Shown here piece after piece: positions 58,945 through 59,757 of a stretch of 64,000 nt of DNA. This DNA is from Escherichia phage BYEP01: the sequence record OR757453.1. One strand, given 5' to 3'. Made by a program: the position numbers and the translations under genes. Each line of letters begins with the position of its first letter. Within the stretch, counting starts at the first letter, position 1. A model generated the notes under the pieces. The model made no database searches. It was not told where the DNA came from and was given only the letters and a program-made list of their open reading frames with translations.

Positions 58945-59757
58945 TTATTCGACCTTCTTAAATTTGCAATTGTCAAAATGGTATCTTTTAGCGTGAGACT
59001 TATCCATGATTTTAGAGCAGTGCGGGCATTTTAATTTTTCTCTGCTATGAGATACACCCGTGATAACTTTGCATTTATCGCCGTGGTATTTTCCATAATT
59101 TCCTACATCACATATAATTCCGCAATGCGGGCAATTTCTCTTTTCGACTTTTGCAAGACCCTTAGATAGTTTATTTAAATACTTTTCGTATTTTTGGGGG
59201 TCACTTTTAAGCTCAGACCAAAAATCTTTCATCTGTTTAGAACATCTTTCTTTATATTCTAACATTTCGTTTTCTGATAACGATTCCAAATATTTCACTG
59301 AAGCTTTTCGAATATTTGCATTAACTTCTTTTCTCTTTTCATCTGTCCATAAAGATTTAGTTTTTTTAATGCCTTTTCCGGCTTTTTTAATTCGTTCCTG
59401 TTTTAAATTTGGTGATAGATTCGCCCAAAACTTTTTAATGGTTTCTGATCTAATTTTAGATGTTTCCTCTTTAATCCATCCGTAATCTTTACTTACAATT
59501 CTCTGCTCTTTTGTACCCTTGGAGAATTTTATTAAAGCATAAGCCATTTCAGAATTTCGGTGTATTTTAAAAAGAAGCTCATGTGCAAAATAGTGTTCTC
59601 TTGCTGTCAGTAAAACCTTGTTTTCTCTAGAATCATCTCCTCCCATGGATTTTGGGACAATATGGTGTGATTCTGTATAATAATCTAATTTTTTCTTATT
59701 AAGACCTCTTTTAAGAGATCTTTCTATAAGAGAGTCGTAAATTTTAGTATAATTCAT
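58945..59757 (-). CDS. HNH homing endonuclease (Mob-like, 270 aa) with C-terminal Cys-rich zinc-finger-like region, between genes 13 and 14
   Basis: [62 protein letters not shown] (HNH motif) ...[22 protein letters not shown]...[21 protein letters not shown]; ATG overlaps gene 13 stop (ATGA); stop 1 nt before gene 14 ATG. Confidence 0.85.

Follow-up and report, generated by a model that had tools for sequence, protein, structure and literature searches.

T4-like phages are well known to carry homing endonuclease genes (HEGs) inside or beside essential or structural genes (PMC2988022, PMC10448857). Seven free-standing HEGs of T4 are promoterless cassettes, and segD is situated between the late genes 23 and 24 (PMC2988022). 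T4 MobE, which is promoterless, makes a strand-specific nick in nrdB of T2, and both the nicking of T2 nrdB and homing have been shown experimentally for this enzyme (PMC2790892).

Here we describe an ORF lodged between the neck genes 13 and 14 of Escherichia phage BYEP01 (OR757453.1). It was analysed within a stretch of 64,000 nt of the phage DNA, which we call the window and to which all unprefixed coordinates refer. We consider it very probable that this ORF is a free-standing Mob-type HNH HEG, a selfish cassette at the Tequatrovirus 13/14 junction that homes in the manner proposed below.

An intact HNH gene between two neck genes

The ORF between genes 13 and 14 (58945..59757, minus strand) is intact and encodes a protein of 270 amino acids. 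It sits between intact copies of both genes, outside any intron or intein. The upstream neighbour, gene 13 (59754..60683, minus strand), encodes a neck protein or head-tail adaptor of 309 amino acids with 98.7% amino acid identity to T4 gp13, and the downstream neighbour, gene 14 (58173..58943, minus strand), encodes a neck or head closure protein of 256 amino acids that is 99.6% identical to T4 gp14.

At the left junction (...GTT GGA TGA ATT ATA) the HEG start codon ATG (59757..59755) shares the letters ATGA with the gene 13 stop codon TGA (59756..59754). At the right junction (...AAG AAG GTC GAA TAA T ATG GCT) the HEG stop codon TAA (58947..58945) is followed by a single nucleotide and then by the gene 14 ATG at 58943. 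The last HEG codons hold a Shine-Dalgarno-like AAGAAGG for gene 14 (58953..58959, minus strand), which lies within the HEG coding region and 9 nt upstream of the gene 14 ATG.

A sequence-only reading of the window had described a 270-codon Mob-like HNH ORF at this position, and its coordinates, its HNH residues and its two CPHC motifs are all borne out by our analysis. The same is true of the ATGA overlap with the gene 13 stop (59757..59754), of the TAA placed 1 nt ahead of the gene 14 ATG (58947..58943) and of the gene 14 Shine-Dalgarno sequence inside the HEG. That reading had also taken genes 13 and 14 to be neighbours in T4; the T4 annotation and sequence confirm that they are adjacent, with a 1-nt spacer between stop and ATG.

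The encoded protein matches PHROG 655 ('homing endonuclease') over its full length (E = 1.8e-52), scores 25.6 bits against Pfam HNH_4 (cut-off 22) and has 413 database homologues, which together rule out a chance ORF at 58945..59757. Its designation as a free-standing HNH homing endonuclease gene draws on the PHROG, Pfam and homologue evidence together with an AlphaFold2 model.

A Mob-like catalytic module with a different C-terminal half

T4 MobD is 46% identical to the HEG protein over residues 1-117 (E = 2e-31). The C-terminal half shows no similarity to T4 MobD, so that membership of the Mob type holds for the catalytic module only. In tblastn searches, N-terminal matches like that of MobD extend to HEGs annotated beside other genes in many T4-like phages. 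The catalytic core (residues 29-59; 59581..59673, minus strand), which is defined by the Pfam match, the alignment and the model, carries the HNH residues H31/H32, N46, H55 and H59, none of which varies in an alignment of 60 homologues. In the AlphaFold2 model (mean pLDDT 89) the core is predicted to form strands at residues 29-32 and 47-50 and a helix at residues 52-66, giving a beta-beta-alpha arrangement with weak local fold matches to solved HNH domains. By motif and predicted fold, the ORF belongs to the HNH (beta-beta-alpha-metal) nuclease superfamily.

Secondary structure prediction places a basic helical linker after the core, at approximately residues 90-208 (59134..59490, minus strand), and AlphaFold2 models this middle region as five long helices with repeats rich in K+R. 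The linker probably binds DNA or serves as a spacer. Precomputed annotation assigns NUMOD3 (PF07460) to the linker region of many homologues, and a Pfam search of the HEG protein itself at E<=1 gives no NUMOD3 match; the linker may be a degenerate equivalent of NUMOD3.

Two zinc-finger-like motifs of the form C-x2-C-x12-H-x3-C follow the linker, the first identified by motif and model (residues 209-229; 59071..59133, minus strand) and the second by motif, alignment and model (residues 244-264; 58966..59028, minus strand). The spacing fits classical beta-beta-alpha (C2H2-like) zinc fingers, as a C2HC variant, and AlphaFold2 predicts strands at residues 206-208 and 215-217 with a helix at 218-224 for the first finger, and strands at 241-243 and 250-252 with a helix at 253-263 for the second. 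The ligands of the second finger (C244, C247, H260 and C264) are invariant in the 60 homologues and the first motif is not; the three closest orthologues have both motifs. Pfam zinc-ribbon matches to the HEG protein all fall below the cut-off, and Foldseek matches of the fingers to the C2H2 fingers of CTCF and ZFAT are weak (E 0.3-1, probability 0.13-0.35).

Fold searches found no solved structure that shares the full architecture, their matches being local and weak, and the HEG protein has no significant sequence or fold match among the solved HNH homing enzymes. As judged from its sequence, the protein is a Mob-like catalytic module joined to a different, putative DNA-binding end built from C2HC fingers. 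The tandem C2HC fingers are an uncharacterised, putative recognition domain among Mob-type HNH enzymes.

The HEG is sporadic among Tequatrovirus genomes

A query of 2.5 kb spanning 13-HEG-14 matched 505 phage records, almost all of them at the Tequatrovirus level, with at least 90% identity. The HEG is present in 46 of the 505 (approximately 9%, a count that takes in RefSeq/GenBank duplicates) with 95.9-100% nucleotide identity, and in 46/46 of these carrier records it lies under or beside a neck-gene annotation. The carriers include phage T6, where RefSeq labels the gene 'homing endonuclease' (KMB99_gp239, YP_010067306.1), as well as EC128, N2, CrRp10 and YUEEL01. The HEG protein is 100% identical to that of phage N2, and the HEG DNA is 100% identical, with 0 mismatches, to that of phage EC128, whose identity to the window across the whole 2.5 kb is 97.1%. 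A single nucleotide separates genes 13 and 14 in T4 and in the 12 HEG-less relatives that were sampled.

A comparison of 13-14 junctions across T4-like genomes had been suggested with the sequence-only reading. Its outcome, a gene scattered through 46 of 505 records and a bare junction in T4 and the 12 HEG-less relatives, speaks for that reading; a conserved ORF lacking HNH motifs at this position in relatives, which would have spoken against it, was not found.

A metagenome scan for close relatives of the HEG returned one further 99% copy (L068, which is the same contig as IMG/VR locus L005) and distant paralogues, and literature searches returned no paper that describes or characterises this HEG. 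Because T6 and dozens of GenBank records annotate a homing endonuclease, the databases already list the HEG under its proper name, and homing endonuclease is what the ORF should be called in annotation. It is therefore known in kind and in sequence, and is an ordinary textbook case.

The insertion carries a recoded gene 13 end

HEG-less genomes read CCA TTT GGA ATT TTG GTA GGT TAA T ATG GCT across the junction, whereas HEG+ genomes read CCA GTG GGA GTG TTA GTT GGA TGA ATT... [HEG] ...GTC GAA TAA T ATG GCT. The HEG-14 junction is the native T4 13-14 junction TAATATGGCT, with an identical TAA-T-ATGGCT context, so that the arrangement of stop, 1 nt and ATG at gene 14 is kept. The start context of gene 14 is spared, in keeping with the sequence-only reading, in which the insertion preserves translational coupling.

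The other side of the insertion is altered. The last 21 nt of gene 13 (59754..59774, minus strand) are GTGGGAGTGTTAGTTGGATGA (VGVLVG*) in the window and TTTGGAATTTTGGTAGGTTAA (FGILVG*) in T4-type genomes. This recoded tail differs from T4 at 8 of its 21 nt, and the alignment shows 7 fixed differences that separate HEG+ from HEG- genomes. The recoding creates a Shine-Dalgarno-like GGGAG 10 nt before the HEG ATG, in addition to the ATGA overlap.

The tail tracks the HEG. A 47-nt probe from the end of gene 13 matches 46 records at >=89.4%, a number equal to that of the HEG carriers; every record at >=89.4% among the matches listed is HEG+, and HEG-less records reach <=86%. We found no donor of the recoded tail among 65 IMG/VR Straboviridae loci, in which the nearest tails differ at 6-7 of the 21 nt. 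One orthologue of the HEG protein ends in ...KLVG*, echoing the ...LVG* of the gp13 C terminus, which suggests that the HEG may read into remnants of an old gene 13 end; the 3' end of the window HEG matches the native gene 13 tail at 7 of the final 10 nt, stop codon included, which is not significant.

Signs of recent spread across phage backgrounds

We aligned the junction regions of 13 HEG+ and 12 HEG- genomes. In this sample of 25, uncorrected for relatedness, diversity (pi) within the HEG is 0.017 in the HEG+ genomes, against 0.028-0.060 in the flanks. Counted from the gene 13 start, positions 1-600 have a pi of 0.039 in HEG+ and 0.041 in HEG- genomes and a dxy of 0.041, and positions 601-906 have values of 0.060, 0.059 and 0.061, respectively; the corresponding figures for the first 300 nt of gene 14 are 0.028, 0.028 and 0.029. 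In the flanks of these 25 genomes carriers and non-carriers are therefore undifferentiated (dxy = pi), and fixed differences between HEG+ and HEG- genomes are confined to the junction. The correlation (r2) with HEG presence averages 0.92 at the junction columns, reaching 1.0 at 7 sites, and is approximately 0.04-0.09 in all other distance bins.

The linked unit is the HEG ORF plus the recoded 21-nt end of gene 13. A mobile endonuclease inserted at 13/14 had been proposed, and this pattern, in which carriage of the HEG is independent of the flanking haplotype save for the 21-nt tail, is in keeping with it. Diversity below that of the flanks and the lack of linkage to flank haplotypes indicate recent horizontal spread, and the data match the picture expected if the HEG has moved recently across Tequatrovirus backgrounds. 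Among polymorphic HEG codons, 30 show synonymous changes only and 13 involve an amino acid change, indicating that the gene is under purifying selection.

Because only 21 nt stay linked to the HEG, the break site is probably very near the 13/14 junction, an argument weakened by the frequent recombination of T-even phages. Cleavage by free-standing HEGs can fall hundreds of base pairs away from their insertion site.

In three records, 1-nt indels in A-runs split the HEG ORF. SHFML-26 (L119) and F1 (L120) have A7 changed to A6 at position 1317 of the gene 13-14 alignment, and CJY920 (L121), a record flagged UNVERIFIED, has A5 changed to A6 at position 1488. These indels are either HEG decay under way or homopolymer sequencing errors.

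Repeated use of the 13/14 junction as a landing site

The closest HEG orthologues from outside Tequatrovirus, at 52-57% amino acid identity, are on three divergent T4-like contigs (Logan, ENA). All three sit directly upstream of gene 14 (gp14 69-79% identical); the end of gene 13 lies directly upstream of the orthologue in the 2 contigs that reach that far, and one of the three has the same ATGA overlap. Orthologues this divergent at the same position indicate that the HEG lineage has long been tied to the 13/14 site, and they reinforce the original placement of the insertion at this junction.

In the 65 IMG/VR Straboviridae loci, gene 14 nearly always follows gene 13 directly. The exceptions are Seg-like ORFs at the 13/14 junction in 4 loci (L030:3927-4562, L039:4000-4584, L060:4160-4933 and L067:355-969), which abut or overlap the neighbouring stops and starts and whose own stops overlap the gene 14 start. 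The ORF of L039 has a SegE_GIY-YIG match and, like that of L067, a match to the I-TevI DNA-binding domain; the assignment of L030 and L060 as Seg-like is based on sequence resemblance only. These ORFs are probably GIY-YIG enzymes, and tblastn at 1e-5 detects no similarity between the four loci and the HNH HEG. HEGs of two unrelated families recur at the 13/14 junction.

At L060:3478-5072, the endonuclease ORF is joined in frame to a second copy of the 5' end of gene 14, approximately 33 codons long; the true gene 14 start comes after the fusion, and the 3' part of gene 13 also seems to be present twice. The arrangement may reflect duplication of the target site or an error of assembly. One contig that carries an HEG orthologue has an additional ORF of 198 amino acids between genes 14 and 15 (L109:1621-2217). 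Among matches in Klebsiella, Serratia and Escherichia T4-like phages, homing endonucleases are annotated in the gene 14-17 stretch, several of them as 'Mob-like putative'. Throughout the family, the neck-terminase module is rich in HEGs.

Elsewhere in the window, gene 17, encoding the terminase large subunit, is fractured (53974..56826, minus strand). Its N-terminal part (55933..56826) follows T4 gp17 up to ...IYIDE and continues into an intein-N-like tail and a stop, and its C-terminal part (53974..55359) begins with an intein-C-like segment ending ...VESHN|C, followed by gp17 (AFIPNF...). Within the fractured gene, a 206-aa ORF (55347..55967) matches a Pfam TnsA-like endonuclease N-terminal domain (8e-10). 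From these features, the fractured gene is a predicted split intein with a free-standing endonuclease. Sixteen phage records, pSe_SNUABM_01, HY03 and CJY920 among them, share this 1-kb insert, and Dassa et al. 2009 described a metagenome locus with a fractured gp17-like terminase (PMC2677866).

Probable expression within the late operon

The exact late-promoter consensus TATAAATA is absent from the minus strand between 54000 and 64000, where only variants with 1 mismatch occur, and sigma-70-like matches are not above shuffled expectation. No terminator-like site was found within the HEG on its strand. With no late-promoter consensus nearby and no terminator-like site inside the HEG, we judged an own promoter or an internal terminator improbable and set both aside. 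Predicted RNA folds at the two HEG junctions and at the T4 junction are no stabler than those of shuffled sequences (z = +1.6, +0.6 and -0.3), and hairpins that sequester the ribosome-binding sites of the HEG or of gene 14 were rejected for this reason.

Late co-transcription of the HEG with genes 13 and 14 would be the simplest reading. Translation of the HEG is probably coupled to gp13 termination, with gp14 re-initiating from the kept stop, 1 nt and ATG. In the 32-nt spacer between wac and gene 13 there is a strong GC-rich hairpin, TGGGGCCGCAAGGCCCCA, followed by a T-rich run (60696..60713, minus strand). A pattern scan marks it as terminator-like, and it could be a partial terminator or an mRNA-stabilizing element upstream of the 13-HEG-14 unit.

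Proposed homing cycle and alternatives

In the explanation that we favour, the HEG would lack a promoter of its own and be transcribed late, together with genes 13 and 14; its translation would be coupled to the termination of gp13 through the ATGA overlap and the GGGAG supplied by the recoded tail. When a relative without the HEG infects the same cell, the HEG protein would use its finger and helical modules to bind the uninterrupted 13/14 junction of that relative, and would nick or cut close to that junction. Phage recombination would then repair the break from the HEG+ genome, copying the HEG and the recoded tail to the recipient. We propose that the carrier genome is immune because its own site is both split by the insertion and recoded, 8 of the 21 adjacent bases being different. 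The recoded tail could instead be mere donor DNA, or an HEG ribosome-binding site, with no part in target immunity.

The alternative that survives best concerns which effect of cleavage is selected, and is compatible with homing: the HEG would be a weapon that damages the neck-gene region of HEG-less co-infecting relatives and lowers their yield, as interference competition or marker exclusion, with homing as a by-product. The target region codes for essential virion proteins, and the lineage has persisted at this site across divergent T4-like phages for longer than the classic cycle of invasion, decay and loss predicts. There is also a parallel in jumbo phages, in which an intron-encoded HEG is reported to mediate interference competition (PMC11620839). 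A strong benefit is not suggested by carriage in approximately 9% of sequenced Tequatroviruses, with some of the copies frameshifted, and we see such selection as a possibility on the unlikely side. It is nevertheless the only rival that stays plausible, as an added role.

Less likely again, and in our view doubtful, is a long-lived, site-faithful lineage, as opposed to one more transient selfish gene, that has kept the 13/14 junction across divergent T4-like lineages because its recoded gene 13 tail serves as a portable adaptor for immunity and expression and because it acts as a weapon against HEG-less co-infecting phages. If this were true, DNA would be recognised through the tandem C2HC finger module, which has no counterpart among the solved structures searched and might be re-targetable.

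A defunct or decaying remnant, which once homed and now hitch-hikes in an essential operon, seems improbable to us. The A-run frameshifts in SHFML-26, F1 and CJY920 would fit such a history, as would the tight wedge between two essential genes, which makes precise loss unlikely, and the inactive I-TevIII of T4 provides a precedent for a stagnant HEG (PMC2790892). Against this, the window copy is intact and its catalytic and finger residues are invariant in the 60 homologues, the 30 synonymous and 13 non-synonymous polymorphic codons point to purifying selection, and a gene 2-3 fold less diverse than its flanks and unlinked to their haplotypes points to recent spread.

In HK97-like phages, HNH proteins encoded beside the terminase genes assist terminase cleavage. 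That the HEG protein similarly aids the terminase from within the neck/terminase module (genes 13-17) is suggested by position only, the terminase genes 16 and 17 being approximately 2 kb downstream, and we rejected this as scarcely credible because the gene is missing from T4, whose packaging is fully functional, and from 91% of the genus, is polymorphic for presence with a signature of mobility, and encodes a homologue of the T4 Mob homing endonucleases with putative DNA-binding fingers of its own.

Under the favoured explanation, homing at the 13/14 junction, the locus adds one more well-behaved free-standing HEG to those in T-even late-gene junctions, with expression of the operon undisturbed. 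The very short linked unit (HEG + 21 nt) predicts a cleavage or nick site near the 13/14 junction, and T6 crossed with T4 or T2 is an easy experimental system.

Comparison with known systems

T6 and the 45 other Tequatrovirus records carry the same gene at the same junction with the same overlaps. Their flanking genes are 2-4% different, as expected between Tequatrovirus isolates, and there is no difference of substance from the window.

The HEG resembles T4 MobD in its N-terminal HNH domain and, like MobD and MobE, is free-standing, apparently promoterless and tightly packed between conserved genes (PMC2790892, PMC2988022). Its N terminus is approximately 44% identical over 113 aa to HEGs that are annotated beside nrdA. 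It differs from MobD and MobE in its unrelated C-terminal half, where two C2HC finger-like motifs follow a helical linker, and in its insertion in late neck genes rather than in nrd or early genes. Unlike MobE, it has no predicted internal terminator.

The HNH motif combined with separate DNA-binding modules is also seen in I-TevIII (RB3 nrdB intron) and I-HmuI (SPO1), although these enzymes are intron-encoded and have a domain order different from that of the free-standing HEG. I-TevIII is also reported to use a zinc finger (PMC1865063). In its choice of site, the HEG resembles T4 segD and the Seg-like ORFs of L030, L039, L060 and L067, which are also at junctions of essential late structural genes (PMC2988022 Table 1). 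These belong to a different nuclease family from the HNH HEG, and the four Seg-like loci use the identical 13/14 junction.
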